A stretch of 55,751 nt of DNA, the filler included, from Sluysia triapertura (Eukaryota): assembly GCA_046118255.1 (NCBI GenBank). It is 4 parts of 4 records of this genome, joined end to end, with 100 filler letters (N's around TTAATTAATTAA, not from the genome) between each part and the next. Parts side by side here need not be neighbours in the genome. Positions count along the whole stretch, not along the records: positions 17,788 to 31,506 come from JBJNIA010023289.1; 3 more parts are not named here. One strand, given 5' to 3'. The position numbers and the translations under genes were made by a program. Of this stretch, positions 10,157-43,649 are shown one piece after another. The notes below the pieces were generated by a model. It was not told where the DNA came from. It worked only from the letters and a program-made list of their open reading frames with translations, and ran no database searches. Position 1 is the first letter of the stretch. Every line of letters starts with the position of its first letter.

Positions 10157-10335
10157 CTGCTTGTGTAAAAGCTCCCATAATGAACCATGCTGATTCTTTT
10201 AAGGAAAATAATTTTCCTTCAATATCTTCATCACTATTAATTCGATTTTGAAAAGAAAATGGTGATATTCTGTCAAATAAAGCTAACAATACTGTTACCG
10301 TTATAATAGATACCAATATTAACAGCCAAACCCCA
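10157..10335 (-). CDS. IR25a-like receptor, M1 and M2 pore-loop exon
   Basis: tttag|...|gtttgt. YGVWLLILVSII...FDRISPFSFQN...FSLKESAWFIMGAFTQAG resembles IR25a FDRWSPYSYQN...FNLKECLWF. Phases 2 and 1 fit both neighbours. Confidence 0.9.
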
Positions 10336-10640
10336 CTAAATAATATTTAAAATGTCATTTTGATAAGGAAAATATTTATATTATTCTTCGAATTATATTA
10401 AAACAAGGCAGTACAATAACTTCTAGTTGATGAATATAAGAATTATATCTGATGTAGAAATTTATGTATTAGAGCACAAATTATACACATATAATTTAGT
10501 TTCACACTTGCTTATCATGGAACCAGAAGCCAAAACTTTTAAATAATTTAAATTCAAAATTCAGAAAATCGAAATGTTATATCTAATTTTAATATTTTAA
10601 TGTAACACTTATCCAAATAAAAGTTAAACATCTGAAATTA

Positions 10641-11086
10641 AGTTAATTAAGATTTTAATTAATTAATCAATTTTTAGACTTAATCTTATTTTATGTTTAC
10701 TAAACGACTAAAGTTATTTATTAGTTTATAAGACATTCAGGAAGCTCTAGATATTTTCAACTTCACCTTTCTGATTCCTTTTTCTACTTCTTCATGTTAA
10801 TTATTACCATACATGATTTATTCTTAGTACCAAAAACAATGATTTTATTTCTCAAGTATTTTAAAGATTTTAAATACTTTACTAAAGGTTACTAAAGGAT
10901 CTCAAATATTTATTGATGTTACAGAAATACTTAAAAGTTAATAAGGTCTTAAATGATCTAAAGATTTACAAGTTCAAAGGTAACTTAAAGCTTCTAAAGG
11001 TTTTCCAAGTGAATCTCAAGCTTCCGCAAGACCTCAATACCCTATATAGGTCTTTGGAACTCCAAATTATTCTTCAGTTATCCACA
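10641..11086 (+). repeat. LTR-like repeat family A copy (further piece at ~11305-11380)
   Basis: Long colinear similarity to reverse complement of ~40560-40992, e.g. CTGATTCCTTTTTCTACTTCTTCATGTTAATT. Confidence 0.8.
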
Positions 11087-11465
11087 TTACTATAAATGTA
11101 TATGTAGTGAACTTCAAACATACATGACACAATCACATACAAAAGCCATCACAAATAACATTTCATAAACAAGAAAAACACTAAACAAAATTATGTTTTT
11201 TTCGTTAATAAATGAAATTAAGTTAAAACTAAGTATTTTAATAGTAGTTAATATAAATTATTTAATGAAAAATCTTCATAATTCTTCCTCTAACAATATT
11301 TATAAAGTTCGATCCATTACTTTGTATCAATTTTCCCTTCATTTTGTAGTTATATTTTGACTTAATTTCACTCATCTCCTAATTTAAATCTATTTTAAAC
11401 TTATTCATAATATTTATTATTTATTTATTTAAATAAGTTTAAAAATAGATCTAAATTATAATAAT

Positions 11466-12032
11466 AAATTATAATTTGTAGGACCAAACACTAGTTGAAA
11501 AACACATTTCTTATGTAAACTGCTACAAAGTAATGTTTTAAAATAAACATAACTTTAATAAAATGTATTGGAATCAAGATGATTGTGGGGAAGCAGGATT
11601 TATTCAAATTGAATTTTGTAAATTAAAGAATATTAAAGTAATTAATGACTTTGATGAAAATTAGTCTACAAAAATGTGATGTAACCGTTATTGATGACTT
11701 GTACCAAGAGGCTAATAATCAGGATGATTTTAATAATTTATTCACTAAAACAAATAAATATAAAGAAGTGACTGTAATTTTTAATTAAAAATCTGTTTCA
11801 TCTAGGTGATAATCATCATACTCGAAATTTATATGTGCATTATTTAATAATATTTAAGAATCCTAGATATCAAACTGTAATAGATTATTTAACACTATGT
11901 GCATTTTCACATAACAAATTATTTCAAATAAGTGCTTTTCGTGATGCAGCAAAAATAGCATACGAATATTTGTTTTTAGATTTCACACAAGCATGTCCTA
12001 ATCATACAAGTATATTTACTTATTATAAATAA
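11466..12032 (+). pseudogene. Maverick/Polinton packaging ATPase remnant
   Basis: Walker A FVGPNTS*KTHF, Walker B VTVIDDL, NLFTK, HYLIIFKNPR and AYEYLFLDFTQ; contains frameshifts and stops. Confidence 0.82.
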
Positions 12033-12239
12033 TGTACTGAATAAGATACTAATTAATTATGGCTAATTTTAAAAAAGTTGTAGTTTTAATAAAGTTAAAA
12101 ATTAACGTTAAAAATTAATTTAGACTGTGTTCAAAAATAAAAAGATGAAATATGAAGGTAGGCTTTATAGACAGACCTTTAGATAATAATTCAACTAACT
12201 TTATGGAAATTTAACAAAGCCATAATTTAAAACAAACAA

Positions 12240-12705
12240 AAAGAATACCCAAATATAAAATTGGTGACTATGTAAGTTCATAAAAAACTTTAATAATAAT
12301 TAGAGTAATTAGGAGTTTCAAATTCAGGAAATTTGTAAAAGATGAAATCTTTTAATGTGTAATAAAAGATGACAAGGGAAAGTTTATCCTGAAGAATTAC
12401 AGGTTCTACCTGAAAAACCGATAATTTATTGTACTAAATTAATTTTGGAAACTAAAGCTGAAAGAATACCCAAAAATTTACCTGTTAAATAGATTTTATA
12501 TAAGAAACCAGATACTTGAGTCTCAGTGGTACAATTTATTTATTATCATCAAATAAATACTGAAAGTACTCATTTAATGTAACCAAGCGATAAATGTCCA
12601 ACTTACTCAATCAGACAATAATGCTAGCATATTCATTATGGATTATCAAAATCCAATAGAATTACCTGGCAAATGGGAAGGCGCACTAGTCGAATTAACT
12701 TCTAA
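12240..12705 (+). pseudogene. Maverick/Polinton integrase C-terminus and minor capsid (penton) N-terminus remnants
   Basis: IPKYKIGDYV, YPEELQV and degenerate chromodomain VK*..Y...T*V, then DNNASIFIMDYQNPIELPGKWEGALVEL (penton N-terminal PI-L-G-WE-AL-E motif). Confidence 0.72.
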
Positions 12706-13133
12706 ATTTTAGAAAATTTCAATTAGAGGGGGAACAATACACTACTTAGAAAAAAATTAGTATAGCCAAAATTTACCTTTATTACTAACATTAATTTATT
12801 CATTGGTGGGCAAAACAAACTTATAGATAAATCATGCATTGTAGAAAAAATAGATAAAATACAACATACCTATGATTTAAATATTTAATAAATTTGTTAT
12901 ACAATTAATTTAGCCAGACTTTAATTAATTAACTCTTGTACATAATTTACTTATTTATTAAAATGTTTTATTTTTATTCATTTCATTTATTTCAAAAGTC
13001 ATTTCTACCTTTACATAAATATCTTCGATTGTCAAAGCTACTTCATAATTAGCCCATTTATGTCCTACTGCTATGTTCTACTGAACATAAAATTACATTA
13101 AAGACGAAATCTAAGTACAAATCACTCCATTAA

Positions 13134-13569
13134 CCCTTTAACCGCCGGTGAGCGCATTTTTGCGAACATAAATTTATTTGTGAGATTATATGAAATATGT
13201 GTGAGAAAAGCCATTAAAAAGCTGGCGCCACTTGCGTCAGTGTTAATTTCAAAATTAATAAAATAGCATTAAATGTGAAAATTGGTAAATTTAGTATTCT
13301 CTATCAAAGTGTAATATAGTGTGGAATGTTCTAAAGCAATCTGACATCTTCTAACAAAAGTAATAATAAAATATTTTCACTTATTTTATTTGATTCAAAT
13401 ATTTTTCTCACAAAATGGTGGTATATTATTGAAATAACATTGTGCACACATTTTAAAAGCAGAAACGATTATGCAAAACATTGTCTTTATTTAATCCTCT
13501 AAAACAATACGCCTTAGAAACTTGCAGAAATACGAGTGGGACCAATTGGTCCCAGCGGTGGCGAAAGGG
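13134..13569. mobile_element. piggyBac-type non-autonomous element (MITE)
   Basis: TTAA on both sides (13130-13133, 13570-13573); imperfect TIRs CCCTTTAACCGCCGGTG / CCCTTTCGCCACCGCTG. Confidence 0.8.
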
Positions 13570-13670
13570 TTAAGAAACACTAACATCTGACAAATATTAT
13601 TTAAATATTATTTAAAATTGGTACTAATACGTAGTAGTTTTTAAAATGTTAAAATATTTTAAATATTTAC

Positions 13671-13837
13671 TAATCAAAAACTGTCACAAAGTAGAACATA
13701 TTTGAAGAAGAATCATCTGGTGGTATATTTTTCATTATTGGTTGTACACCTACAAAATCGATAAAAGGTATTGTAAAATCAACAATTTTTGATCTCTGTT
13801 TCGTGACTGTAATTGGTCCAATTGCTAAGTCTGCTTT
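13671..13837 (-). CDS. IR25a-like receptor, exon encoding second half of S1 and pre-M1
   Basis: ttcag|...|gtaaat. KADLAIGPITVTKQRSKIVDFTIPFIDFVGVQPIMK...FYFVTVFD retains the S1 Arg and the VDFT motif. Phase 2 matches the next exon. Confidence 0.92.
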
Positions 13838-13943
13838 CTGAATGAGACAATATATAAATCAAATTTACGAAAAATTTATATATATTCAAATTGTACAAAT
13901 AAATTATTCACATTATTTTTAATAAAATTATCAATTAACTTAC

Positions 13944-14129
13944 ATTAATTGAAATTTCATTAATAATTCCAGATTTTGTATAATTAAATCCGGTTGTCAA
14001 ATATGGTTTTGAAGCAGAAAATACTTTTAAATTGTACTTGAACCCAGCAATTTTACTTATTTCTTCTAGTAAATCTACACAAAAGCCACTATAATTGCCA
14101 ATCGGTTGTTGCATTACAAAAATGTCTTC
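13944..14129 (-). CDS. IR25a-like ionotropic (glutamate) receptor, exon encoding first half of S1 ligand-binding lobe
   Basis: tttcag|...|gtaagt boundaries, 186 nt, phase 0-0. Translates EDIFVMQQPIGNYSGFCVDLLEEISKIAGFKYNLKV...SGIINEISIN; GFCVDLL is the iGluR S1 motif. Confidence 0.9.
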
Positions 14130-14328
14130 CTGAAAAATAAATACATTTATTTTATAACATAAAAGCTAAAAAATGGTATATATTAAGGCCGTGATCGGGG
14201 AACTTTTACTTCCATTACTCCAATATGATTTCAGTAATTTACTCATATTCCGCGACCACAGTTTTAATGGATTTAACCGTTTTTATACTATACTCGCACT
14301 TGCAGTACAACCCATTACACTGCTACAC

Positions 14329-14489
14329 TGTTAGACTTCATAAAATGGACTGACCGGGGATCGAACCCGGGACCATCGTCTGCGCAGTCCGACTACTCTA
14401 CCACTGAGCTATCAGCCCCGTCTAACAATTTCATTTTCAATATATTCAATTATACTACTTGGCACTTTTTAGGCCTTTTAGCCCCAACA
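14329..14489 (-). mobile_element. 161-bp LTR-like unit (TGTTGGGG...GTCTAACA) containing a tRNA-like sequence; candidate TRIM LTR
   Basis: TG...CA ends are defined by the other two copies, whose identity stops at TGTTAGAC (31433) and CCCCAACA (43726). Followed on the minus strand by a PBS-like GTGTAGCAGTGTAATGG. Confidence 0.7.
14346..14418 (-). tRNA. tRNA-Ala-like pseudo-tRNA inside the mobile unit
   Basis: GGGCTGA/TCAGTCC acceptor stem with G3:U70 and A73, A box TAGCTCAGTGG, T arm CCGGG-TTCGATC-CCCGG, TTTT terminator. Anticodon arm does not pair canonically. Confidence 0.7.
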
Positions 14490-14829: not shown

Positions 14830-15700
14830 CCTATCCTGGATATTGAAGTGCATGTTCCCTATAGGTATTATAGGATGATTCAATGGATAGTATAATGCAT
14901 TGTCGTGCCAAACTGGTCATGTTCGCTTTTCGGAAACCCAAAGATTTTAGTAAGATTACATTTTCGGGATCCCAGGAACCGAGGGCCCCACAAAAAAATT
15001 ATCGAGGAAAACTTGACAATTTAGCTGTTTTTGTAATTTTTCCTTAAGATATCTATATTTTTCCTCATTGAGAGTTCGGGCAGCTCTAAAGTTTTCATAT
15101 TTGTCAATGGGAGATTTGACATCTATGAGATCGAGCTGAGAGGAGTTTGTGCCCCGAGCCTGTATATCTGGCCGTCATGTATCGCCGATTATCGGTGTTT
15201 GATAATCTTTTTTGACAGAGAATCCCATGGATTTTAATTTGTCAACTAAACAATTCAGGATTTTATTATGTCTAACTGTGCTCCCAGTGACAGTATGGGA
15301 CAGAGACACAGAATGTGCGCTAGGGATTCTATTTCAAAACATGTAACAGGAATGCCTAATGTTCGAAGCATTATCATTGATTATATTATCAGCATTTGAA
15401 ATCACGATAATTTATGATTCTTTTCAATGTATATTTCAATGAGTTACTATCGGATGTACGTCTTTTGTAACAAAATAGAAGTAAATAAAACGCAGAGTTT
15501 GAAGATATTGTTCAGAATGATGTCAATGAAAATAGGAGAGGCTCTATTGGTGAACTAACTGTGATTTTATTATGATCAATCGTTATAGTTTATGTATGTA
15601 TTAATTATTCTATTTTAGGTCTTATAGAAATTGGTGAGGTTATAATGACTATGCAATATTTGTAGGTAAGTTTGATGAATCACTGGTACACCACAATTAT
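14830..15700 (-). mobile_element. 3' coding end of an RLE-type (NeSL/Utopia/R2-like) non-LTR retrotransposon, decayed
   Basis: TCFEIESLAHILCLC zinc knuckle, RHNKIL, RPDI, IDVKSP, NEEKY and VGALGSWDPEN across frameshifts. Confidence 0.85.
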
Positions 15701-17687: not shown

Positions 17688-17787
17688 NNNNNNNNNNNNN
17701 NNNNNNNNNNNNNNNNNNNNNNNNNNNNNNNTTAATTAATTAANNNNNNNNNNNNNNNNNNNNNNNNNNNNNNNNNNNNNNNNNNNN
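17688..17787. other. Assembly gap with artificial TTAATTAATTAA linker (also 31507-31606, 43550-43649; plain gap 4718-4846)
   Basis: Identical 100-nt N44-TTAATTAATTAA-N44 blocks; the linker gives stops in all six frames. Confidence 0.97.
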
Positions 17788-22469: not shown

Positions 22470-23400
22470 ACAAATTAAAACGTCTTTCTTTTCATATTTA
22501 ATTCTTTAAAGTATGTACAAAATCTCATTGTTACGTCTTTCCTTTTAATTAATAAAACTGGTGATAAAAATGGAGTAAAGACCGGTCTTATTACTTCTAC
22601 TTTCTTCGTAGTATCAATTTGATCTTGCATTTCTTTTATTACGCAGCGTAATCCTACATGATTTATTTCTAATGACACTGTCTGTTAGAGATATTTCGTG
22701 TTTAATTATAATAGAATTATCAATATGTATGTGATCTTAGCAATTGCTCTTGAATATCTATAAATAACTTCATATAATTGTTCCTTTTGTTTTCCTGTGA
22801 GATTTTTATTTGTATTTTGTATTTCTCCATAATCTTCATAATCTGTTTCTCTTTTCAGTTCTATGGTATTACTTTTGGATTTGTTTGTAATTGTATTAAT
22901 ATGCGTTTGTTTTTACCTTATAATTAGTGCTCTTCTATAACAACTTCTCACCATTAGTATGATTTATTATTCGAATTGATGGCTTTCCTTAAAAATTTAA
23001 ATACCTGTCCCTCTACCTTTTTTTCTTGATTAATTTTTGATGTCGTAAACATAATATGGCCCTTTAACAAACTATTTATTCGTGCCATTATGATGTATTC
23101 ACTTCTATTTAATAATTATAAAGGTGCGTCATATTTTAAAATTCTGTTGGAGTAACTGGCCATCAGTCTTCCTTTATCATAATACAATATAACTCCTTTG
23201 AGTTGTGATAGAATATTCATTCCCAATATCATATCTTCAGAATAACTGCTCATCACTCTTAGCTTAACGTCGAACTTATTTTGTCCTAACTCTCAATGCG
23301 CTTACATTTATTGCATTTCGAGTAACTTCTGCTAGGTGATCTGCAAGACATTTTCTTTCATCATTAATATAAATAATTAAGTTTTAAAATGTGGTTGTAA
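22470..23400 (-). mobile_element. Second diverged Gypsy protease to RT-N fragment in tandem
   Basis: DMILGMNILSQLK parallels EMIMRTDILSQLK of the first copy; SPVLLIKRKDVTMRFCTYFKELN. Confidence 0.8.
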
Positions 23401-23599: not shown

Positions 23600-24720
23600 T
23601 TAATGCCTGTTTAAAGTTGCGGGGGCACCTGTTAATCCGAATGGAATTTTCCCCCATTCATATAATTCATCTACGCATGTAAATGCAGTTTTGTGCTTGT
23701 CTTTATCGGCGATTTCTATTTGCCAATAACCATTTTGCAAATCGAGAATTGTGAAGTAAGTAGCATTCCCTAATTTATCTAATATTTCATCTATTCGTTA
23801 TCCTATTTAACTCCCTAAAAGCTCTGCAAAATCTCATTATACCATCTTTCTTTTTAACCAATAAACTGGAGATGAAAATGGAGAGAAGATAGGTCTTATC
23901 ACTCCAGCTTTCTTGCATTTCCTTTTGGTTACATATAGGTATCCTATATGGTTTTTTACGAATTACTTTATCTATTATTAATGGTACCTCATGTTTAATT
24001 ATCACTGAGTCCCCAATATCATATTTATTTTTAGCTATAGCTCTCAGATTAAGATAAATAACATTATATAACTGATCTATTTGTTTCTTCGTTAGATTTT
24101 CATTAGTTATTTCCATTTCTCCGTAATCCTCATCTTGTATTTCACGCTATAATTTTATATTATTCTTATTTTTGTTTTATGTCTTATTTTTATCTTCCAT
24201 TATAATATTAATATGTGCAGATATCTTATACTTGAAGATTTTTCCTAATTTGGTACCAGTATAAAGCCATTGGTATAATTTGTATAATTTATAATGCGGG
24301 CAAATATTTTTCATTCCTATATCTAACTTTTCTTGATTAGTCACTGATGCAACAAACATATTACTGCCAGTTAATAAACTGTTTGTTTTAGCTGGAATTA
24401 TATATTCACTTCTACTTAATAATCAAAAGCACTTTTTGATCGTCTATCCATCAATCTTACATGGTCAAAATCTAATGTAATTACTTTTAATTGTGACAAT
24501 ATATCCGTTCTCATTATCATTTCCTCAGATCATTTCTTCAAGATTCTTAATTTAATTTCTAATTTATTTTGTCATACTTCACTATAGCTTTCATTTGTGT
24601 CACCTGTAACTCCAGAAAATTCCTTGGTTAAGAAAGTTTCATTAATCACATAGACCACCGCTTTTGTGTCTATTAATGCTGAGACCATTCTATCATTTAT
24701 TCTTATATTTACCATTGGTC
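23600..24720 (-). mobile_element. Ty3/Gypsy pol remnant: aspartic protease and N-terminal RT
   Basis: RPMVNIRIN..VSALIDTKA (degenerate DTG), KKPYRIP, LVKKKDGIMRFC, LDKLGNATYFTILDLQNGYWQI..DKHKTAF..PFGLTGAPAT. Truncated before YxDD. Confidence 0.93.
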
Positions 24721-24968
24721 TTTATTAGCCATTGTAGTTGTTATTTGCACATATCATGTACACTACATGTTGGAGTGATAGGATATATTCTTTTTTTCTG
24801 ATTTTCTCTTGTTTTTTGATTTTCTGTAAATTTTTGATTTTGATTTTTGATTCCTCACTTTTATTATTCTGTAGTGACTGTAGAGTTACGTTTTTCATTT
24901 ATTGTCTTTCTTCTGTTCGTTGTCTCTCTTTTTCTTCATGCATTTATTTGTGCATTTGCATGATGATG

Positions 24969-25760
24969 TTAGAGATATTGCGCTAAAAATGGAGAGCATC
25001 CAATTATTAATCTCCACGTTAATCCTGAAACTTTATAAATTCCGATTACCGAAAGCACTTGAGAAATAATCAACGCTATTACTTTAATTAATATATAAAT
25101 TCCTTTTAATCCAAAAAATGCTTGTCCCAATATTAGAAATTTTCTTCATTTTTGTTTTAACTTATCTTATGCGCCCTTTTAAAGTGATCCGGTCCCACTA
25201 GTAATTCGAAGTTTACTTGTCCATTCTTTTCAAATATTGCTTTGCCTACAATTTCTGTTAATATTTTTGATCTTCTTATTGGGAATAATATTTCTCGCCA
25301 AGCTGCTTGAATGTAATTGTTTGCATAAATACCTGAATTAGATATATTTTTGTAGCCAAAAATTAAAATTTCCCTTTCAGTTCAGTTAATCCTATAATTT
25401 CCGTAGTTTTCACTTGACTCCTATGTGGTAACGATATCCACAAATTATCATCTATTCTATATTCCGGTGCCATGATATTTGAGGAATGCATTAATTTTAG
25501 TTTGACTTTGTTCGGAAAAATTACTCTGGTTACCGGTTCAAGGTATGTTTCTATTTGCCATAAATATAGGTAATTCATTTTTGCATTCTGTAGTTGATCT
25601 TAATTGTACAATACTTCTTCCATTACTCGACCAAAAGCTAATTCTTCTAATGTAAGTAATGGTGCGACTAAATCCGGGATGGTAATGACCACTGCTAATT
25701 TTGTCCGTAAAAATTTCCTTATTTAATTGACAATTACGTGTAACCATAATTTGGTAAATC
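24969..25760 (-). pseudogene. C-terminal half of the same envelope glycoprotein including TM anchor
   Basis: IYQIMVTRNCQL, TTECKNELPI, YLEPVTRVI, APEYRIDDNLWISLP, SGIYA, then hydrophobic GIYILIKVIALIISQVLSVIGIYKVSGLTWRLIIG. Confidence 0.72.
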
Positions 25761-28480
25761 TTTTTATTGTGAATAAGTTTATATTATTGCTAGATTTACT
25801 TATGACATGAAATTGACTATAAAAAGGCTTTTTACACAGTTGTTCAATAATCACTTTCAGAACAAAATATAACAAAGTTTCCTTCATCATGATAGTTAAA
25901 CTAACTAGATTGTCCAAGAGTACAGTCAGAGATACTGTTACGTGCCTGCAGTTCACTAGGCGGGTCATGTCTAGAGCGATACATAGGCCCAGTCGAACGA
26001 TCCTGATTATTGGTTTCCGGATTCTGCCTAGGATCGACCTAGTGATCAGTTTCTTTAAGAAAAAGCCTAATGTACAATCTTTTGTACGATAAACATTATA
26101 AAAATTACAAGAACTAAAAGGGCAGAATAGTTATGATAAAAGAGCGATTTTGTAATGGAAATTGTCATTAGAAGGTAAGTTTCCGTAAAAATGGGTAAAC
26201 ATTGCCTTAAAGACTGTGCAGCAGTTTTGATACATATATTCAAAACATAAAAAGATAAATGATAAAGATTTTGTATGATTAACTTGGTCAAGTTTTAAAT
26301 ATAATGAAATATAATATTACTGTTAGAATATAAAATTCAAACTTAACGTCTTTAATTACTATAAAATTTATTCCAACACACTCATTCAACTCTTGGAGTG
26401 ACTGAACTATATCGTTAACTGCATCTTCAATATCCTTGCCTTTAGCATCACGATAGAATAGCACCTCGCGCTTTCTATAAGGATCTACCACTTTGTGTTA
26501 GCACTCTACTAACTTCCACAAATTCTTCCATACTAAAATTACGATTGTTGTGAGATATAGAACTAATACTGGCGTAATCTCGCTTACGGTGAGACAATAT
26601 CATCACGCCCATAATATCTGGTCGATTTTTATCTATATCCGACACACTATATGTATTTGTAATTGATAATCAAAAGCCCGAAAAGCACCGTCCGAGTCCT
26701 TAGCTGCATCCTGCACCTCGTCTTCATTCAAATTTAATTTATAGACCCGGTATACATTGTTCGAAGTTTCAACAGCACGAGGTCTCATCTCGTGCATTAA
26801 GCCATATGCTGCATTTAACTTGATTGTTTAGTATAAAGTCGAGGAATTTCTTGAGAACAATATTAAGACAAATTTTCATAACTGTTAATATATTTAAAAG
26901 TTCTAAATCTTGCAATTGTGCAAGAAGCTAAAGACTTGTCATTTTGAAAATCTTTTTTAAGCTTGTTTTTAAAAATTCTTCAGATTAAAACAAAAAGTAA
27001 AAAATATAAAAAGTATTAAAATATCTTTTTTATCACATAATTTAATATTATCTACTGTTTACAATTATTTGGTGCATTTTGTGGTTAACTTAATGAAAAA
27101 CATCATGTTCTTATATTATTTTATTACTACAATTATAACCTTAAACATGCAATAGCAATATTTGCTTCTTCAAATAGATTTTTTTAACTGTCAAGTTAAT
27201 TGTTGCCACATGTTGGACACCGAGTATTTCCTGATTTAACACTGACACATCACCTTTATTCAAATGCATATACATTTCTAAATTAGTGTCTACCAATACT
27301 GTATCAAAAGTTTTATACCAAATTATGCCGTTTTCTTAGATAAATGGTTTGTCATGGAAATAAGGATATTTGAAACAAAACTACAAAATATACCGTGAAG
27401 TATACCAGTTAACAATTTCATTTTTAAGTAGAAATAACAGTGAAGTTTTAAATTTGATCATTTTCAAATGCTAATAGTAAATATTATTATTATTGAAATT
27501 TTGTCAATATGCTTAGTATAACATCAATAAAAATACAAAATACTAAACCATAACATAAAACTAATTTCACAATTAACTTGAACTTAAAATGAATATAATC
27601 AAACGTATCATAGTTCAGGTTTGTCGCAAATTAACAATACGAGTTTACAAATAATAGAGTTCTAAGTAATTTGTAGACAGAATTCATCCCTGATACAATA
27701 GTTTTATCCACAGGACAATGAAAAATAGTATGATATTGTTCGCGACTAACATTTATTCAGTATTTGGGAAATTTGAATAAATTAAGTGTCTGTTTGATCT
27801 GATCGTGATTATAAAATACAGTAATAAAGTCAGAAAAATATAGGATTGTAATAAAAAATAGATAAATGTAAAATTTTTCATAATGAATTCAAAACAATAG
27901 GTGAGTATGTTGATCGAATGTGTCGTGGATTAGCATTAAAATAAATGATCATTAGCAGATATAGATTAAAAATATACAATTAGAAGCTTTGATTAAGGCC
28001 GACACCGTAAAAACAAAACCAAAAACCAAACAAAAACATCCCGCTACCATTGTGGAATGCTTAATAACTTGGTTTTCCGTCCGAAGTAGTTTTATACGAT
28101 TTAAAATTATAAAATTACAGAATTATATAGAATTATAATATTTAAAAATATAAAAAATAAAATTGTAAAAGGGTACGATTTATAATCTTATAAATTGCAA
28201 AAAACATGAAAATGAAAATGAGACACCAAAAAAAAGTGTTGCGTCATATTGACGACCGGATGACAGAGTGTATTATATTTAATGTTCTCTTTTAAACAAT
28301 TAATAAAACAAATTTTATTAGGCATCTGTGATTTTATAATATTGAAGGGACAATGAATAATGTAATGTTACGAGTGATATAGTCAAGACATGTTACAATG
28401 TATTTTTTATGATGAGGTTCGTGTGTTATTGGTTATATAATTTATGTGATGAACGTAGTCGTCGGCTGAACCACCTCACC

Positions 28481-29519
28481 TTTCTAAAGATATTAAGCCT
28501 GGATGATAATAAAAATCGATGTTATTGTTAAAATAGGTATTTAATTTTACGTTTTTCATGTTGACTCCTTTTTTAGCTTGTATTGTTTTTTCCGACAAAT
28601 AAATTCCTTGGTAGTTTGTTTCAGTTATTTCTTTACCACAACGAATTATTGTTCCTTTTGAGATAAATATCAAGCAATCTTCCTCTCTATTCGCCATTAA
28701 TATTGTTGATGTTTCTATTTCATCCAACCTTTTACCCAGTATATTATCAATATTTTCTCTACTTAACTGATTTTTGTTTATTTCTTCTATTGGATATTCA
28801 TCTTTATCTTGATATATGAATTAAATTATATTTTATTTTCTAAAATTTGCTAAAATACTAAATTAAATTTTATTTGCTTTAAAAATATTAATGGACATTG
28901 AAATTTGTCCAACTCATAAATTAATGTTGATTCTCCTGTTTCATAACCTTTACAGTATAATTATTGTTCCTTTCTCCAAGTCAAAACTTTCGTAAACTGA
29001 CTTTAAACTCACGAAATATGTTCTACAGCATTGTGGTAAATTTTCCTTTCATAATCTATTGTTCTTTATTCGCAAGTTCAATATATACATTGCGGTTCTA
29101 ATGTTATAAATTATTTCCTATTTTTAATTTATCTCCTTTATTTAAACTTATATATCCTGTTTCAAACATATCTCAGCACTATTTTGGTAGGATTTTAAAT
29201 GCTTGAGAACATTTGACAATTCTATTATTGAGGAGTGTCTGAGATGGTCACAATATCAAATTGCTATTGATCGTTTTACCATGCATTCTCTTATTAATAT
29301 TGTTACTAAATTTCTCTCTTGATAAACATTCATTACTTTAGTATCTTTCTCTTGGATTAGATTTGGCCTTGACTCAGTGAAATCTTCTGTATCCAATAAA
29401 GAGAATTTTCTACCTATTTGAGGTTGACTGCAGTCGAATACCTTTGTTGCATTAGTCCTATTTACACCGTACATAACTAACAGTATTATAATAACATATT
29501 GTTTGTTGAGTTTCCTATT
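28481..29519 (-). pseudogene. N-terminal half of chuvirus-G/gB-like (class III) envelope glycoprotein
   Basis: Signal-like YVIIILLVMYG, then VFDCSQPQ..FSLLD...ECMVKRSIAI*YCDHLRHSSII, later RCGKEITETNY...LNTYFNNNIDFYYH. Motif order matches chuvirus-like G as I recall it. Confidence 0.72.
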
Positions 29520-29559
29520 GAACTCAACTGTATTACTGTTACTGTATTACTTTATTGCC

Positions 29560-31170
29560 GTTATTACCGAATAGGTGTGTAATTCGATTAGTCGGCTCTT
29601 CTGTTTTTTTATTTTATTTTCCTTTTATTATGTTTCTCCAACCTTAATTTTCTTGTTAACAAAATCTATAACTTTATCTATTTTGTTTTTTGTTATCATT
29701 CTCTCTTTATCGCATTGATAAATAATATACGCTAAGATTATTTTAAATTTTCTTTACTATTCCTTTACTAATTTGCTTATTTATTATCAACTTATATTAT
29801 CCAGTGTCTAGAAATTCACTAACATCTTTATCTACGTTTTTCTTCAAACTGTCTTACTAACTTATTTATAAAAACTCTGTAGCCCTTTTTATTTCTGGTA
29901 ATAACTTCTTATCATTATTAAAATTAGTGAACCCATCAGACAACAACGCATAAATTACTCCTTTAGTATCTAATTCAATTTTTTCATAATCATTCTCACA
30001 ATCTATTTTAGACAAATCAATAGTATTTCTAACAAGTATTTCTAACATTACATCATTCTCATTCTTCTTGAACAGTCAGGCCTTCTTTTTATTGTATTTT
30101 TTCCTTTGTCAACAGTTATTGCGATTTACTATATAATGAGGTTCTTCAGTAATTTTACCATTAATTCCCATTTCGTCATTAATAGCAACTCCAGTATTAT
30201 TTTCAATTATTTGTACGTCATCATCCGTTAATTTTATCAAAAAAGAATGTGTGGAATCATTAACTTTTCTATCTATTTCTTCTTTAACTTCAGCATTTTG
30301 GGATTTTCATATATAATAACGGGTAACCGTAATCAGTTAAAAATCCTCTAGGTTCTAAATATCTATTATAAAAATATAATTTTACATCTACTATTGTCGG
30401 ATCATTTAACTTAATTAAATCTATTATATCTTCTATTACTATAGTTACTGGTAATTATTAATTCAGCAATTAATATATTAGTTTTCATTAAAGTTTTAGG
30501 TTGTTCTGTGTTGTCAGTTAAACATATTTTTTCTTAACAGCTACCTTGCTTTAAACTATATGGGCTATCTTCCCGACTTAAATAAAGTAAACTTGGTCTA
30601 ATACTTTGTCTATTAAACATAATTAAATTTTATTTAAATATTATATATACATTTTCGTCAATATTTTTACCATATGTTAACTCTGAGAGAAATGTATCTA
30701 CATCTTCATATAATTTTGGTTCTTCAACCAAAATAACTATTGGATCAGAATCTGAAGGTGTATCATTAGTAGACTCCTCTTGATCAAATAAACTGATTAT
30801 TTCGTCTTCTTCTAGATCAGATAAACACTTAACTTCTTCTCTAATTGATAATATTGATTCCTTATCTTCATCTTCTTCCTCATCTATCACACCATTATCT
30901 TTTTTCCATCTTTTTATGATTGATTCTTCATATGTTATTTCTTCTTCGAGTTCTTGAGCACTTTTAACTAATTTAGGTTTTCGCTGCTCTTCTGCTAATT
31001 GTGCTTCATTTTTATCTTCATTTTCTTTTTCTTTTAAGAGCTGCATAAATAATTATGTATATAATTAATAAACATATCCTCTTCGTCATCATGTTTTCTT
31101 CCCAAGTAATTTCTTTCTTCCTTACTCTCGACATTATCCATCTTTATTCTGCGAAATTCTCGTAATATCT
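29560..31170 (-). pseudogene. Decayed acidic/charged ORF between LTR and env of the Gypsy element
   Basis: ORF-track pieces 30630-31046 and 29866-30048, same strand and composition as env/pol. No Gag zinc knuckle seen. Confidence 0.5.
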
Positions 31171-31193
31171 CCTTGTTGGGATTGTCAAGTTAG

Positions 31194-31432
31194 TGTATAG
31201 AATTTGAAATATATAAGAAAAATGACATAGAATATCTGAAATATGATAATATATACGTAATTAAATATTTCTAGAGCAAGAATAATAAACAGTAAAATGT
31301 TTATCATCATTTTGTAACCGAAGAATACCTTGGAGTTCCAAAGACGTTTTTAGGGTATTGAGACCCTCTGAAGACTTAAGTAAGGTTTGGAAAGATGTCT
31401 TGAAGAGTAAAGTTATCTTTGAACTTCGGAAC
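31194..31432 (-). mobile_element. Partial LTR (family A) upstream of acidic ORF-env-pol
   Basis: GAATACCTTGGAGTTCCAAAGAC matches 40566-40588; flank TGTTGGGATTGTC matches TGTTGGAATTGCC beside the 40.5-kb copy. Confidence 0.6.
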
Positions 31433-31506
31433 TGTTAGACTTCGTAAAATGGACTGACCGGGGATCGAACCCGGGACCATCGTCTGCGCAGTCCGACTGC
31501 TCTACC
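31433..31506 (-). mobile_element. Second copy of tRNA-containing unit, cut by gap, abutting a Gypsy-type LTR
   Basis: Two substitutions versus 14329-14402; one restores the D stem (GAGC). Confidence 0.85.
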
Positions 31507-32426
31507 NNNNNNNNNNNNNNNNNNNNNNNNNNNNNNNNNNNNNNNNNNNNTTAATTAATTAANNNNNNNNNNNNNNNNNNNNNNNNNNNNNNNNNNNNNN
31601 NNNNNNAATCCAACGGCTGGCCCTCGCTGGTAAGTCCAGTACGTTGGTGAACTCACGATATCTTAAATCAACTTTTATTCTATCACTTCTTTAACTTATA
31701 TTTCTCTCACAAAAGTTTACAAATAGTTTATTAGTTTAATATGATAAATCTAGTATCATTCAGTTTAATTTATTTTGCTACCAGTTATTGAATATAAAAT
31801 ATAATTCACACGGATTTAATAACATTTCAGTTAGAATAGTCAAAACAATATTATCATTCTATTACTAACTTCCACTACTTAATTCTTCTGACGTCTCAAA
31901 ATCTATGCGCTGGCCCTTTAGTGATAACCCGCACAAATATATACATCTTACAAAAAAGCTAAAAGTAGCAAATTTCCACTTATTTAAGATATAAGTAAAG
32001 CAAAATTAAAGTAAAAACGAATATTCCACTTATTTTAACAATACATAATATAACTAGCAATATTTCACATTTATGATTAATCCTAATTATATTTATGAAT
32101 AACCTTATAAACAACCTAATTAATTGAATTTGAAATTGAATTATTATATTAACTAAAATTTAATAGGAAAATGTAATTTCAAATAAGATTATCTCTAATT
32201 GTACAATAATACCCACCATTAGACAGATTATTGCACAAGATATGATAAATAATTTATGAAAGTTATTTGATAGTCAAAATAAATATTATTATTTACGAAG
32301 TTCGATTAAAATAATCAAGTCTGTATTTATTATTATTTTTTAAATATTTAGTAACTAAATTAATAAATATAAAATTAAACTATTTGTATCAAAATATTTA
32401 AACAAGATGGTATTATCTTTTTATTA

Positions 32427-34519: not shown

Positions 34520-34696
34520 AGAGGTCTTGTATAGGTCTTTGGAACCTTAAGATATTCTTTAGCTGTTAAGATCATTATAAATGTTTTCTTTTTCGTGATT
34601 CTTATTTCAATCCATCACTTTGTATCAGTTCTTCCTTGATTTTATAGTTCTATATGTTTCTTACTCATCTCCTGTTCTACAGTTGGGCGATCTCAA
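34520..34696 (+). repeat. 3' part of family A LTR plus PBS-like site
   Basis: GGTCTTTGGAACCTTAAGATATTCTTTAGCTGTTAAGAT matches other copies; ends TACA-GTTGGGCG. Confidence 0.7.
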
Positions 34697-36648
34697 TAAT
34701 TTATTTATGTTATTATTTAATTATTACCTACTTGTAATAGTGAGTAGATAATAATTACATTTATTGTAAAGCTTCTGATTTAAATAATCAACGAGTTTAG
34801 GAAACTGAGCATAAATAAATTAACCACAAAAAAGCAATTGGACAATCGGTCATACTTTTATTCCATTTCAATTCTTTGAATACTTGAAATAAAAAAATTA
34901 TAAAATATTAAAACATTAAATATTTAGAATTAACAAATAAATAAGTAGTTTGACTACTTGATTAAAGCCAAAATCACATGTCTTACTGTTCATTATCGTT
35001 TCAAAATGTAACTTTAATGGAGAACAACTCAAATATTGTTTCTTTAAAACAGTCATGAGAATAGTTTGCTTTTATTGTAATTGTGACATTGTTGTAGCTC
35101 AAATAAATAATGTATCACTGAAATCGTCAAAATTGAAGTTTACTACAAACACGAAGATCACGTCATATTAGTCTCTTAAGGAGGTTACGTGGATTTTTGT
35201 TTATTGTAGGTTTATCTTATTACTAATTTTATCTTTTCTTTATAAGTCAGACTGTGCAGCTGGTAATAAGCTAATATTCTACAGAAATATTGATGGATTA
35301 TTACTGTTAAATGCTATAAAAGAACCTTCTGTTAATTATTTAGTTATTACCAGTGGTATTGGCAAAGGTAAAAATGCGCAATCTGTTGGTGTTATGCTAT
35401 TTCTTGTGTTGAGTATCTGAAACATTTGTTATAAACGAAACAATGAGGAATGGAGAAACAATTTTGATATGGATACAAATTAAAAAGATATGATTTTATT
35501 GATTTTAATGATTTTAATGTTTTGTGTTTTGTTTTTAACGTTTAAATATATGCTTCATCATCCTTTATTATTTGTCGAAAATACTTTACATGTAAACTAT
35601 TTATACCTAAAATAAATTTATCATTTTATATGTAAAGTTTTTTATTATTTGTCGAAAATATAAGATGGTAGATGGTGAAAATCTACATAGCTACTAGAAA
35701 TTTACCATATGGAAAGGCACTGATACAATTCAAATCTGAAATTGTGAATGAAAATTCTCCGGATTACGAAACTAGTACGATTGACAATAATGCAGTGGCA
35801 ACTTGTTCAACTGATGGCCAACACTATACTGATACACGCAAAGAGCGATTGTGCAGGTATTCTAGTAAAATTAAAGAAATCGTCGTCGGGTAAAAAGACT
35901 ACAAATAGAATTAAGAAACATTTGTATGAACAATGTGATTATCCTAGTATAATTTTTAATTTGTTTTTGAATTTATATATGTTATATTTTCGTTTTTCTA
36001 AGTCAATTTATCTAACTAATTTTACAAAGCTGTATTTGCATGGCATTAAGCAGGCACCTAATTTATAATTTATAATTGAGATAGGTTATAAATACTAAGA
36101 ATGTAAATACTAAGGAGTTAAAGTTACAAAATGTAAGACAGATACCATAAAGTATAAATAACTTAATTAAAAGATTTAAAATAAAGACTTTAAAATATTT
36201 GAAGATAAAGAGATCACTTAAACGTTCACTAATAACTAAATTTATTAGATATTTAATGATAAAAGAGTTAGGAGCAGAAAAATTAGAATTAACATTTATT
36301 AATAAGATTATTATTAGATCTAAAGTTACAATTAAAAAAACCCGTTAGCATCTCTCAAAATGAGTTTAGTGAAATAATTGATTGGTATAAAAATATAACC
36401 GAGTTAATTTAATAGTGATCACTGTTTGTCATTAAATACACATGCTTCGCGAATATTTAAAACCATATTAACCATCAATATTTGAATTATTGTTATTATC
36501 GTTTAAGTATCTTTCTGAGTTTCTTAACCATTATCTTGAAATTTGAAAATATTTTATTTTCTTTAATAAAAATGATAAATTTTCTTTTAATTGATGTACC
36601 AAATAATATTTATTCATTATCATTATTAATACAAAGGTTTTTCTTTAA

Positions 36649-36876: not shown

Positions 36877-38008
36877 TTAAAAGTAAATTCTAACACGCAA
36901 AATAATCTAGCGATAGACAACTTTGTAGAATTTTATTAACACTAATTACAATGAAATTAAACTTGAAAAATTACTGATTCTAAGAATAATTACTTAAAAT
37001 AGCTTTTTTGTAATCTTTCTTTTGATTCCTTGTAATACTTGGGTTCTGTATGAGTTCAGTTAGTTCAAAAACGTATTTTTATATAACTTATGCGAGTGAC
37101 TACTTAACGGTTTTTCTTAATTCTAGTTCGTTATTCGTATAAATTGATTATTGTATCAACTTTTTATAACTATTATATTAATCAAAAACGATTCGTTTTG
37201 TTTTATTATTATGTACAAAAAAGAACTAAATAAGGTCTTTATTTATACAAAACACAAAAGAGTTAAAAATATGATAATAAAGTATACAAACAATTGACAA
37301 TATCAAGAAAAAATATTTATGTAATGTAAATTTATAGAAAATTTTAGTGGTAGATAATTGTTATAATAATTTTAGTGTATTTTGGACCTTGCTTAATCAA
37401 GAATAAACTTAACAAATATAAACTTAGGATTTGTACACAACAAAATGAAATATGCTTTATCCTCTTTCCGGGTGAACTGTTCACAGATGAATCATACATA
37501 AAAAAATGCTGATAATTGGAGGGCAGTTCTACGACGATTTTACCAATGCGGTCGGATCACGAATAGAGAGTCTAGGATGAGTCTTTGTTTGATTACACTT
37601 ATAGTCGATGTCGTTGCCGGATTTATCTTATAAGTTTATAGTTCGATAAATTATTCGGTAAAAATTTGGTTTCAGTTCTAATTACTTGAGTCTACTTATA
37701 CTATTTATTTTTCAACATGGGTGCTACGCTCTAAATATCAGTTTTATTTTCTGGCAATTAATACGAAATGGACGTTAAGCCCTAAATATTATTACACTTG
37801 TAATTCATTATTCGTAAATTTATTATAAGGGTTATTTTGTAATTATTGTCAATACTATTTATTGTTATTACTTTGTTATTATTATTATTGTTGCTGTTGT
37901 TATTATCATTATAAATAAATCCTTGACATTATAAACATAACAATAGATGTAAGAATTCCAATGGAGTCGACTTACCGCAACATATTTAAAGAATATTTTC
38001 ACATTTAG

Positions 38009-38723
38009 GTTACTACAAAATGGTTTGGTGGTTCTGTTACCGCATGGATATGATGGTGCTGGTCCTGAACATTCATCTAGTCGAATAGAAAGGTTTTTGC
38101 AACTAACTGATTCTTTAGAAACCCAACCTGATAGTGACAAAGTCAATATGTCCATAGTCAATCCAACAACACCTGCTCAGTATTTTCATGTACTCAGGCG
38201 TCAAGTTATTCGACCGTTTCGTAAACCACTTATTGTGATCACTCCTAAACTCCATATTCGTTCCACACAAGCAATTAGTTGTCTAGATGATATGGCACCT
38301 AATAAACATTTCCAACACATCATAGCAGATGCACCAGTATCAGGTGATCCTGCAACTGTTTCGCATGTACTTTTATGTTCTGGAAAACATTATTACACTT
38401 TGAAACAACACCTTTTGGAGATGAACGAAAACGATAGTAAAAAATTTTCATTGATTCGAGTAGAACAGTTGGTACCTTTTCCAGTAACTGAATTATATCA
38501 AGAACTGCAGAAATATAAACGAAATAATCGCATTATAAGATGGTGTCAAGAAGAACCAAGAAATATGGGAGCTTGGAACTTTGTAGAAACACGAGCTAGA
38601 AATATTCTTGGTATAAATTTAGAATATGCAGGTCGTCGAGAATTGGCCACACCAGCAGTTGGAATTGGTGAACTATATAAACAAGAAGTATCAGATATCA
38701 TAAAATCAGCTTTTAGAATTTAA
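38009..38723 (+). CDS. DHTKD1: Terminal exon of 2-oxoadipate dehydrogenase E1 (DHTKD1, OGDH family)
   Basis: Acceptor catttag at 38002-38008. (W)LLQNGLVVLLPHGYDGAGPEHSSSRIERFLQ, NPTTPAQYFHVLRRQ, SGKHYY, WCQEEPRNMGAW, PAVGIG. GAGPEH, SGKHYY and PAVG favour DHTKD1 over OGDH. Confidence 0.88.
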
Positions 38724-39785: not shown

Positions 39786-40479
39786 AATTAATTTCAGAAT
39801 GTTTTGACGTATCTCGAAATAACATTCTCCATAAACAAAATTGATCTTGTGGCTTGTTAAGATTTTTTTATGTCACTCGTTGTGTAGAAGTTTATGTTTA
39901 AATATGAATTAAATTGCCTTCATTTTTCCGATTATTCAAAATAAATAATTTGTTTATAAATAATCGATAAATAAAAAATGATTTTTAAAATAATTTGTTT
40001 ATTAAAAATTTATCTTTGAAATTATCAAAATTAACTATTAACTAAATGATTTATTTATAAAATTTATTTTCGGCATAAAATGAAATAATATTTTAAATCT
40101 TAAGGTATTGATCCTACCTTAGATTGCAATGATTTTAGTTGAAAGTTTAAGTCAGCCTTTTTGCGGTCTGACAATAAATTAAAGATTTTAAGTAGGAGTT
40201 CAGCCCTATTTATTAAAATTAGGACATGGAAAAACTTATTAAAATAGAATTACTTTTTTATGGAAGAATTTGAGATTTTCTTATAAGAACTGGAATAATT
40301 TAACTAAATAGCTCTTCCTTTCCACTAATCTTATTTTCTGTATGACGACTGTCTGTTTTGTGTCTTGTACTTGTCTAAAATTTTGTTAATTACTTGGTAT
40401 TTTTATACCTGTTTTTGTCATCCATCTTGTTTAGTTTATACAAATTTTTAAATTGATCTATTTGTTGGAATTGCCCAAC

Positions 40480-40992
40480 TGTGGATATGGAAATGAACAA
40501 AAATATATAAAATAAGAATAAGAATCATGAAAGAGAAAACATTTATAATAATCTTAACAGCTAAAGAATACCTTAAGGTCCAAAGACCTATATAAGGATT
40601 TGAGACCTAATGAAAGCTTGAGATGAACTTGAAGAACTTTTGGAGACATTGAGGTACCTTTGAACTTTGGAAAATTTGGATAATTTAAGACCTTAGCAAC
40701 CTTTAAGCATTCTTGGAATATCGATAAGCATTTGAGATCCTTAAGAAACCTTATAAAGTGTATAAAACCTTTAAAATGATTGATAAATAAAATCTTTGTC
40801 AAAATAATAAAGATAAGTTTAACATAGTAATAATTAACATGAAGAAGTAGAAAAAGGAATCAGAGATGTGAAGGCGAAAACATATACTCTCCTGAATGCC
40901 TTATAAACTACTAAATAACTTAATAAAACCTTTAAACATAGAATAAGATTAAGTCTAAAAATAGATTAATTAATTAAAAATCTTAATTAACT
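40480..40992 (-). mobile_element. LTR-like repeat family A, followed by PBS-like GTTGGGCAATTCC and internal leader (to ~40100)
   Basis: Reverse complement of 10641-11086. Ends ...CCACA then GTTGGGC; the same junction (TACA-GTTGGGCG) occurs at 34678-34689. Confidence 0.7.
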
Positions 40993-42429: not shown

Positions 42430-43549
42430 ATGTTACAAATTCAAGAACCTCACTACTGATCCTGTTCCAATTAGATATGGTGTAAAACAAGGGTGCCCTA
42501 TTTCAATGACTCTTTTCTGTTAGGCTATTGATTACTTATTTCATAGGTTCACCTCCATGGAAGATTACATCGCAAATAGTGGAATATCGTTTCCTCCTTA
42601 TCTTGCCTATGCGGACGATATTGCACTTATTGATACTTCACATAAACACCTCCAGCAGATGTTCCACTACATCGTGGGACATGCTAAATCTGCTAATCTG
42701 ATATTCCGCTCTAGTAAGTGTTTCTATTTCCACACTATCCCTGATTCGACAAATCTTTTTGTCTTCATTGATGGCACCCGAATTGTAAATATGAAAAATG
42801 GTGAAAATACGATTTATCTAGGGATCCCATTTGGTGAACTTAAAAAACAAAACCTGAATGACCTTCTTGGAGAGAACCTAGCAATGGTCAAAAAAAAATC
42901 AAAGACTCCAGTCTAAGTTGCAGAAATAAATTTCTTATGTTTCGCAACTTTATTCACTCGCGCCTTCCATTTCACTTGCGAAATCTAAATATTAATACCC
43001 AAACCCTTAGTAGTCCTCACGCATGACAATCCAAAATCCTTCCCCAATCTGTTGGATATGACGAAAAAATAAACTATCTATTCAAGAGCTTCCTAGGATT
43101 GAAAAACTTCCCTTAAAATAATTCTTTCTTTATGCATACAAAAATCACGGCGGTTTAAGCCTGATATCTTCTTACGATGACTATATGTGCCAGAATATAA
43201 TTTGGGCATTCCGTTTATTTAATATTTGAACAAACCTTATTCGTATCCTTGCCTTGCATGAAATTCTTCGCGTCGCCAATGATAGATTAAATAAAATCGA
43301 GAACATTTCTGATGCTCTATCTTGGCTGAATGGCGGTAAGCCCGATAAGCGTTCACGAGGACAATCTATCCTCAATTTGAGCCGAAATACCGAATTTCTG
43401 CAAGCTTCTTTTATTGTGAGAACCAATAAAGTTAAATATCAAATGCGTCATCCTTTGTGAAAACGAAGTCACATTAAATCGGTTTCATAAAGAGAAAGTA
43501 GGTAAATATCTTCATGAATTGATTAATATTTCCAATAGCGACATTTGGA
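42430..43549 (+). mobile_element. Reverse transcriptase fragment of an R2/NeSL/Utopia-like non-LTR element, decayed, cut by gap
   Basis: PIRYGVKQGCPISMTLF, LAYADDIALI, FRSSKC, YLGIPFG and later HGGLSL. Confidence 0.85.
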
Positions 43550-43649
43550 NNNNNNNNNNNNNNNNNNNNNNNNNNNNNNNNNNNNNNNNNNNNTTAATTA
43601 ATTAANNNNNNNNNNNNNNNNNNNNNNNNNNNNNNNNNNNNNNNNNNNN

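Follow-up and report, generated by a model that had tools for sequence, protein, structure and literature searches.

Organization of the locus

The locus analysed here raises the question of whether an envelope gene (env) upstream of protease (PR) and reverse transcriptase (RT) is the native architecture of a retroelement or an accident of a rearranged copy. The window, that is, the whole stretch of DNA that was analysed, comprises 55,751 nucleotides from Sluysia triapertura (assembly GCA_046118255.1), joined from parts of four records. Three-frame translation of the minus strand revealed, within one contig bounded by gaps at 17688-17787 and 31507-31606, a partial LTR-like repeat followed by 1.65 kb of decayed coding DNA, env, a transmembrane (TM) segment, a linker, a protease and the first half of RT. 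Pfam and collinear tblastn matches confirm this order, in which a preliminary description had placed env upstream of PR-RT. Taken together, the data indicate that the element is very probably a decayed, partly deleted Ty3/gypsy copy that belongs to the GAG-ENV-POL type and whose envelope is a gB/chuvirus-like class III protein; the host genome is probably that of a flatworm. Its features are as follows.

31194..31430, minus strand: 3' remnant of an LTR-like repeat (blastn to two other copies in the window)
31173..31188, minus strand: degenerate PBS-like site (similar motif behind the repeat copies near 40470 and 34700)
29500..31141, minus strand: decayed N-terminal coding region of about 550 codons (A-rich strand bias shared with env and pol)
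28480..29516, minus strand: N-terminal half of the envelope, with an internal signal-like hydrophobic stretch, stops and frameshifts (PF24664, phmmer, tblastn)
25764..28479, no strand assigned: unrelated insertion of 2,716 bp inside env (4-bp direct repeat at its ends; env homology resumes directly behind)
24960..25763, minus strand: C-terminal half of the envelope including the TM segment (PF24664 471-516 and 544-627)
24722..24959, minus strand: charged linker (cytoplasmic tail) from TM to protease (spacing compared with relatives)
24404..24721, minus strand: decayed retroviral-type aspartic protease with a degenerate catalytic motif (RVP, E 0.0012)
23606..24403, minus strand: sequence linking PR to RT, and the N-terminal half of a Ty3/gypsy RT (RVT_1, E 1e-10)
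22489..23309, minus strand: second, diverged fragment (C-terminal half of PR, N-terminal part of RT) of a related element (64% nucleotide identity over 852 columns to 24596-23798)

Translation and tblastn show many stops and frame changes across env and pol. The copy is dead and unable to perform any step of the element cycle proposed below. An A-rich strand bias runs uniformly along the element (A 0.39-0.47); the insertion at 25764-28479 lacks it (A 0.34) and gave no Pfam match in any of its six frames. Reassignment of TAA under an alternative genetic code was rejected, because a host exon of 256 codons is open under the standard code and because TGA stops and frameshifts also occur.

The LTR proposed at 31194-31432 is borne out in part. 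The sequence is repeated elsewhere in the window, with blastn matches at 10970-11080 (75% over 113 nt) and 40520-40672 (69% over 159 nt). Only the 3' part of the repeat is present, and the four-copy alignment is good only over about 31426-31270. The 5' part has been removed by a tRNA-like repeat (31431-31506) together with the contig gap, and no 3' LTR of the element was found within the window.

A class III envelope interrupted by an insertion

Three pieces of the window match the Pfam family PF24664 (Monjiviricetes_fusion): profile positions 6-96 at 29150-29546 (E 1e-6), 471-516 at 25150-25360 (E 1.6e-4) and 544-627 at 24870-25142 (E 6e-7). The N-terminal half contains the signal-like stretch (hydropathy 3.1 over 11 aa), and the TM segment lies at about 25094-25038 (hydropathy 2.5 over 19 aa). 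The tblastn matches of relatives are collinear across the insert, as P0005 illustrates (397-477 to 28718-28479, then 471-620 to 25779-25360). The preliminary description recognized one frameshift, behind the TM segment. That frameshift is present, but env itself changes frame several times in the tblastn matches.

The fold was tested on the relative with the best env match, P0001, and the window envelope was assigned by its PF24664 matches. The AlphaFold model of P0001 (mean pLDDT 72) matched chuvirus glycoproteins best (E 1e-41) and also resembled herpesvirus gB (Foldseek E 2e-13, TM 0.33-0.44 over about 650 columns). The assignment to a chuvirus/gB-like class III envelope thus stands, on the profile matches in the window and the model of this relative. 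A word-based homolog search with the env piece 28480-28820 retained none of 267 candidates, the piece being too decayed, and an ESM Atlas search with the N-terminal env piece returned only unrelated HTH-like clusters and was uninformative.

Protease and RT follow the envelope directly

An aspartic protease lies ahead of RT, as in Ty3/gypsy elements, on the combined evidence of Pfam, profile score (z = 18 against 40 shuffles) and tblastn (P0045 2088-2256). The RT breaks off ahead of the catalytic YxDD region. Among 10 PDB sequence matches the best was Ty3 RT (E 6e-15), and the PR-RT/RT region is 38-51% identical to 10 relatives; by sequence, the RT is assigned to the Ty3/gypsy type. RNase H and integrase were not found anywhere in the window (best tblastn E 0.63). 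The second PR-RT fragment, at 23309-22489, was missing from the preliminary description; it matches P0045 2209-2283 and 2327-2467 in tblastn.

The frame first proposed for the linker contains 4 stops in 96 codons; the two alternative frames contain 7 and 9. Taken alone, this count is a weak sign, and the spacing shared with relatives carries more weight. From the pre-TM motif to the protease motif there are 157 codons, compared with 147-390 in the 13 of 17 relatives in which both motifs were matched. Similarly, env start to protease measures 682 codons net of the insert, compared with 685-913 in 11 relatives. This spacing leaves no room for gag between env and pol, as originally proposed, and a six-frame search of the whole window with capsid and CCHC profiles gave no match.

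Relatives carry env ahead of pol in one polyprotein

Phmmer, queried with the N-terminal env frame, yielded 39 proteins at E<=0.001, and a search with the env-protease region of P0003 yielded 9, of which 6 were new, giving 45 relatives. One of these 9 carries the label of a bacterial MAG protein. The Pfam scan covered 25 of the 45, namely the 6 new proteins and 19 from the first search (the long ones plus five with lengths of 447-639 aa), and omitted 20 proteins under 500 aa. Env and protease occur in one protein in 17 of the 25, and env comes first in all 17; 10 of these also carry RT, and 9 also RNase H followed by integrase. No scanned relative has RT or integrase ahead of env (0 of 25). 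In P0017, P0040, P0043 and P0045, capsid or CCHC, env, PR, RT, RNase H and integrase follow one another in one unbroken chain. The suggested (gag)-env-pol polyprotein thus finds its counterpart in the relatives as a native architecture. Were env encoded in its own ORF downstream, it would show up by itself as a protein of about 650 aa; P0039 (639 aa, the weakest match) may be such a case. Two scans for DNA of the relatives in bacterial or archaeal genome contigs confirmed none of 342 and none of 21 stretches.

The relatives map collinearly onto the window by tblastn. Backing for the env-linker-PR junction comes from these sequences only, all of them distant, with env identities of 20-43% to the window. 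A chance join of env and protease appears unlikely, because the relatives are env-first in every case (17/17) and collinear, and because the spacing of 157 codons falls within 147-390. By these comparisons, the env-first order appears to be neither a deletion nor a nesting accident.

The capsid region has probably been lost

The preliminary description suggested that gag may have been deleted, citing the acidic ORF right after the PBS-like site. Loss of the capsid is probable, with profile scores at shuffle level. The acidic ORF by itself is no sign of a deletion, because relative P0042 has an acidic leader ahead of its capsid. In the window, the acidic stretch occupies 31052-30630, inside the N-terminal coding region. 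Three of the four single-chain relatives were among the training sequences of the capsid profile, which scored the held-out P0043 at E 4e-42; held-out capsids of relatives score 42-63 in their best 35 columns. In the window the capsid profile scores 17, a value equalled by 16 of 40 shuffles, whereas the equally divergent protease scores 50. Capsid conservation among relatives equals that of the protease, which the window does show. The likeliest reading of this copy is that the capsid/nucleocapsid region was deleted.

Two other readings of the N-terminal region were weighed. The roughly 550 codons ahead of env could represent a whole gag plus spacer, diverged or decayed past detection. Their length matches that of compact relatives (548 aa ahead of env in P0002, 525 in P0017 and 470 in P0018), and some relatives have an acidic leader ahead of the capsid. 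Because compact relatives pack gag plus spacer into 470-548 aa, this reading keeps some standing, but the shuffle-level capsid score, set against 50 for the protease and 42-63 for held-out capsids, and the absence of a CCHC signal from the window profile searches make it unlikely.

More doubtful still is a lineage natively without a capsid in frame, either with gag in a separate upstream frame or as an env-pol element borrowing Gag in trans. Eight of the 17 relatives with env and protease have no capsid or CCHC in the called protein, and P0041 and P0044 begin just ahead of the spacer module described below. In addition, a start codon follows the PBS-like site at a distance of about 30 nt in this element and of about 40 nt in the repeat copy near 40470. 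Those relatives may, however, be truncated or mis-started gene calls, the leader similarity is not significant (67 of 500 shuffles were equally good), and one decayed copy cannot demonstrate a lineage.

Between the acidic stretch and env, the window may hold a helical plus ubiquitin-like (Ubl) spacer module. In hhalign comparisons with relatives, using segments chosen by eye, 2 of 60 shuffles were as good as the helical piece and 5 of 60 as good as the Ubl piece. A frameshift-aware score for the module was reached by 1 of 40 shuffles, but at a column that misfits the by-eye alignment. Hmmsearch with Ubl/helical and Bcl-2 profiles gave no match in the window region upstream of env, nor did Pfam find a helical/Ubl or Bcl-2 domain there. 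The likeness is faint and non-significant, and we take it as a hint only.

The modules are clearer in the relatives. In the AlphaFold model of P0009 (mean pLDDT 61), residues 19-190 or so adopt a retroelement capsid fold (Z 10.8-11.7 to PEG10, MLV and Copia), the N-terminus aligning with PEG10 CA (Z 11.7, rmsd 2.2, 83 aligned) and the MLV CA CTD (Z 11.1). Residues 459-538 of the model resemble ubiquitin (Z 12.7, rmsd 1.9, 77 aligned), and ubiquitin-like profiles match 10 of 22 relatives. Some relatives have two or three protease motifs. Ubl domains and extra proteases are thus seen in relatives and are weakly hinted at or absent in the window. A Bcl-2-like domain in three relatives is a weak Pfam lead (E 0.001, 0.0015 and 0.055, below cut-off); in P0009 the stretch has a pLDDT under 50, and ESM Atlas returned no usable match for it.

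Origin of the env-pol junction

A deletion or a nesting event could have fused the env of one gag-pol-env element with protease-RT sequence from a second element. The locus is indeed rearranged, with an insertion in env, a truncated RT and a second PR-RT fragment behind it, and a frameshift is located just behind the TM segment. Blastn detected no LTR-like repeat between TM and protease, the spacing agrees with that of single-ORF relatives, the nearest env relatives are themselves env-first polyproteins (17/17), and the strand bias is uniform along the element. We consider such a chimera highly improbable. The least credible origin is an Anakin-type BEL/Pao element, or a Gypsy relic with a free chuvirus glycoprotein inserted beside it: chuvirus-like G has been described from Pao elements of mosquitoes and from solo insertions (PMC7642597, as far as available) and chuvirus glycoproteins are the best structural matches of the P0001 env model, but Ty3 is the best solved match of the RT, and the relatives bear RT_RNaseH and Integrase_H2C2, domains on Ty3/gypsy-kind Pfam lists, with env fused to that pol.

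A probable flatworm host

A DHTKD1 exon at 38010-38720 was used to place the host. Among the best 120 of 720 matches, animal homologues share 51-63% identity with it; the one exception is a plant paralogue at 40%. In the tree it groups with one further protein (100/92) and with Macrostomum (98/88). The tree comprises 41 hand-picked rows and 229 columns of one gene, without nematodes, bryozoans or acoels, and its bootstrap was unconverged. With one gene and sparse sampling, the placement suggests a flatworm host as more likely than an arthropod.

A proposed cycle for the active ancestor

Hydropathy and general knowledge of membrane protein biogenesis suggest how an active ancestor might have worked. 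One polyprotein would be threaded through the ER membrane: the Gag part would be synthesised in the cytosol, the ectodomain of the envelope would enter the lumen by way of the internal signal sequence, and the TM segment would halt transfer, so that Env would bear PR-RT-RH-IN on its cytosolic tail. The parts would then be separated by host signal peptidase together with the protease of the element. Budding particles would carry the gB-like fusogen, which could allow them to move from one cell to another (from soma to germline or stem cells). Once inserted, the copy in the window probably lost its capsid/nucleocapsid region; it also lost all sequence beyond mid-RT, received the 2.7 kb insertion into env, and decayed.

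We tentatively extend this to a wider reading, which we regard as somewhat less probable than its opposite. The window would belong to a lineage of single-frame polyproteins of 2,100-4,000 aa, organized like those of flaviviruses or alphaviruses, with Pol packaged as the tail of Env and not as Gag-Pol, and with Ubl, Bcl-2-like, extra protease and post-integrase hydrophobic segments as accessory modules. In the literature searched, which covered few subscription journals, we found no published description of Env-tethered Pol packaging, of a Ubl domain between gag and env, or of multiple proteases in such elements.

Taken by itself, this fossil locus contributes little. Intact relatives show that one reading frame can encode gag together with a class III fusogen, predicted to be luminal, and pol, predicted to be cytosolic. 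Sacco and colleagues are said to have described nematode ERVs with a continuous gag-env-pro-pol ORF. Such single-frame proteins raise the question of how Gag:Env:Pol ratios are set and how Pol is packaged, and the ubiquitin-like and extra protease modules of the relatives merit specialist attention.

Comparison with known systems

The novelty implied for an env-before-pol order is not supported. Ty3/gypsy elements with a gB-type env in GAG-ENV-POL order have already been published from three phyla: according to the available part of Chary and Hayashi (eLife 2026, PMC13524379), gB-type env is the only kind present in the errantiviruses of Nematoda, Bryozoa and Platyhelminthes, where it occurs in this order in several clades. 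The same source gives ENV-GAG-POL order in two mites, 9 flatworm rows in its supplementary file 1 with up to 215 copies in Schmidtea, and the transmission of such elements as not known. Its main text, in the part available, is silent on env and pol sharing one frame, on ubiquitin and on Bcl-2. It credits the flipped env/pol order in nematodes to Sacco et al. 2022 (J Gen Virol 103:1739), where a metavirus captured an RNA-virus glycoprotein as env. The window element shares this flipped order with these non-canonical ERVs, which were reported from nematodes and are compared here by description only (via the available part of PMC13524379).

Anakin BEL/Pao-chuvirus hybrids of mosquitoes, in which Dezordi et al. 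described chuvirus G in Pao elements (PMC7642597, available part), likewise have a chuvirus-type glycoprotein in an LTR element; they are BEL/Pao elements of arthropod hosts, whereas the window element is Ty3/gypsy. Drosophila gypsy and ZAM errantiviruses are, like the window element, Ty3/gypsy elements with a fusogen gene. Their env is made from a separate spliced RNA. Unlike the window element, they have an F-type env and gag-pol-env order (PMC13524379, available part).

The closest likeness is to the GAG-ENV-POL gB-type 'ancient errantiviruses' (PMC13524379, available part), with which the window element has in common a Ty3/gypsy-like pol, a gB-type env before pol, an ectodomain flanked by a hydrophobic segment on its N-terminal side and by a TM segment, and, probably, a flatworm host. 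As described there, those elements are intact, often multi-copy and LTR-flanked, whereas the window copy is decayed and truncated, with stops and frame changes throughout in place of intact ORFs and without a detectable capsid. The kind of element is thus already described, and the window copy is a further, decayed member of it.

Additional modules in the relatives of the envelope protein

Some of the database protein relatives of the window env (numbered P0001 to P0045) carry a helical plus ubiquitin-like module between the zinc knuckle and env. The ubiquitin-like part lies at residues 459-538 of P0009, and the module profile also matches P0003, P0006, P0012, and P0040-P0045; the helical plus ubiquitin-like module occurs twice each in P0042 and P0045. 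Directly before env, three relatives give weak Pfam matches to Bcl-2 (P0001 9-70, P0009 651-748, and P0042 1172-1233), with E values of 0.001-0.055 that are below the cut-off, and neither fold nor Atlas results confirmed a Bcl-2 identity of this stretch.

The polyproteins P0004-P0007, P0018, and P0040-P0045 each contain two or three motifs of an aspartic protease, and some of these motifs are positioned after the integrase. Hydrophobic segments follow the integrase in 7 of the 9 long relatives checked. P0042 additionally has ankyrin repeats, and both P0041 and P0044 have C2H2 fingers. P0003, a full env-PR-RT-IN polyprotein, is labeled in the database as a protein of a Flavobacteriaceae metagenome-assembled genome (MAG); we infer that its presence in this bin is most likely eukaryotic contamination.

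Other features of the window

The record joins consist of N runs flanking a 12-nt all-frame stop spacer, and the order in which the contigs follow one another does not show that they are neighbors. Coding-like stretches at 26340-26800 (minus strand) were observed within the insert that splits env, and they matched no family. The remaining features are as follows.

Features of the window outside the env-pol element
about 8000-14200, minus, and 11500-13400, plus: putative exons of a presumed ionotropic glutamate receptor-like gene and, in an intron, putative decayed Maverick/Polinton-like fragments, all by eye
about 14850-15400, minus: decayed endonuclease-like tail, called by eye; no informative Pfam match
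37953-38723, plus: host DHTKD1 exon, the basis of the host guess (flatworm)
42524-42916, plus: non-LTR-type RT fragment (RVT_1, E 7e-5)
17688-17787, 31507-31606, 43550-43649: scaffold joins
10601-11099, plus: further copy of the LTR-like repeat, beginning with TG
34526-34700, plus: further copy of the LTR-like repeat
40993-40470, minus: further copy of the LTR-like repeat
14346-14418 and 31431-31506: tRNA-Arg(GCG)-like sequence, two copies

A PBS-like motif is located at the end of two of the three further LTR-like copies. The two tRNA-Arg(GCG)-like copies share 97% identity and probably represent a tRNA-derived repeat.
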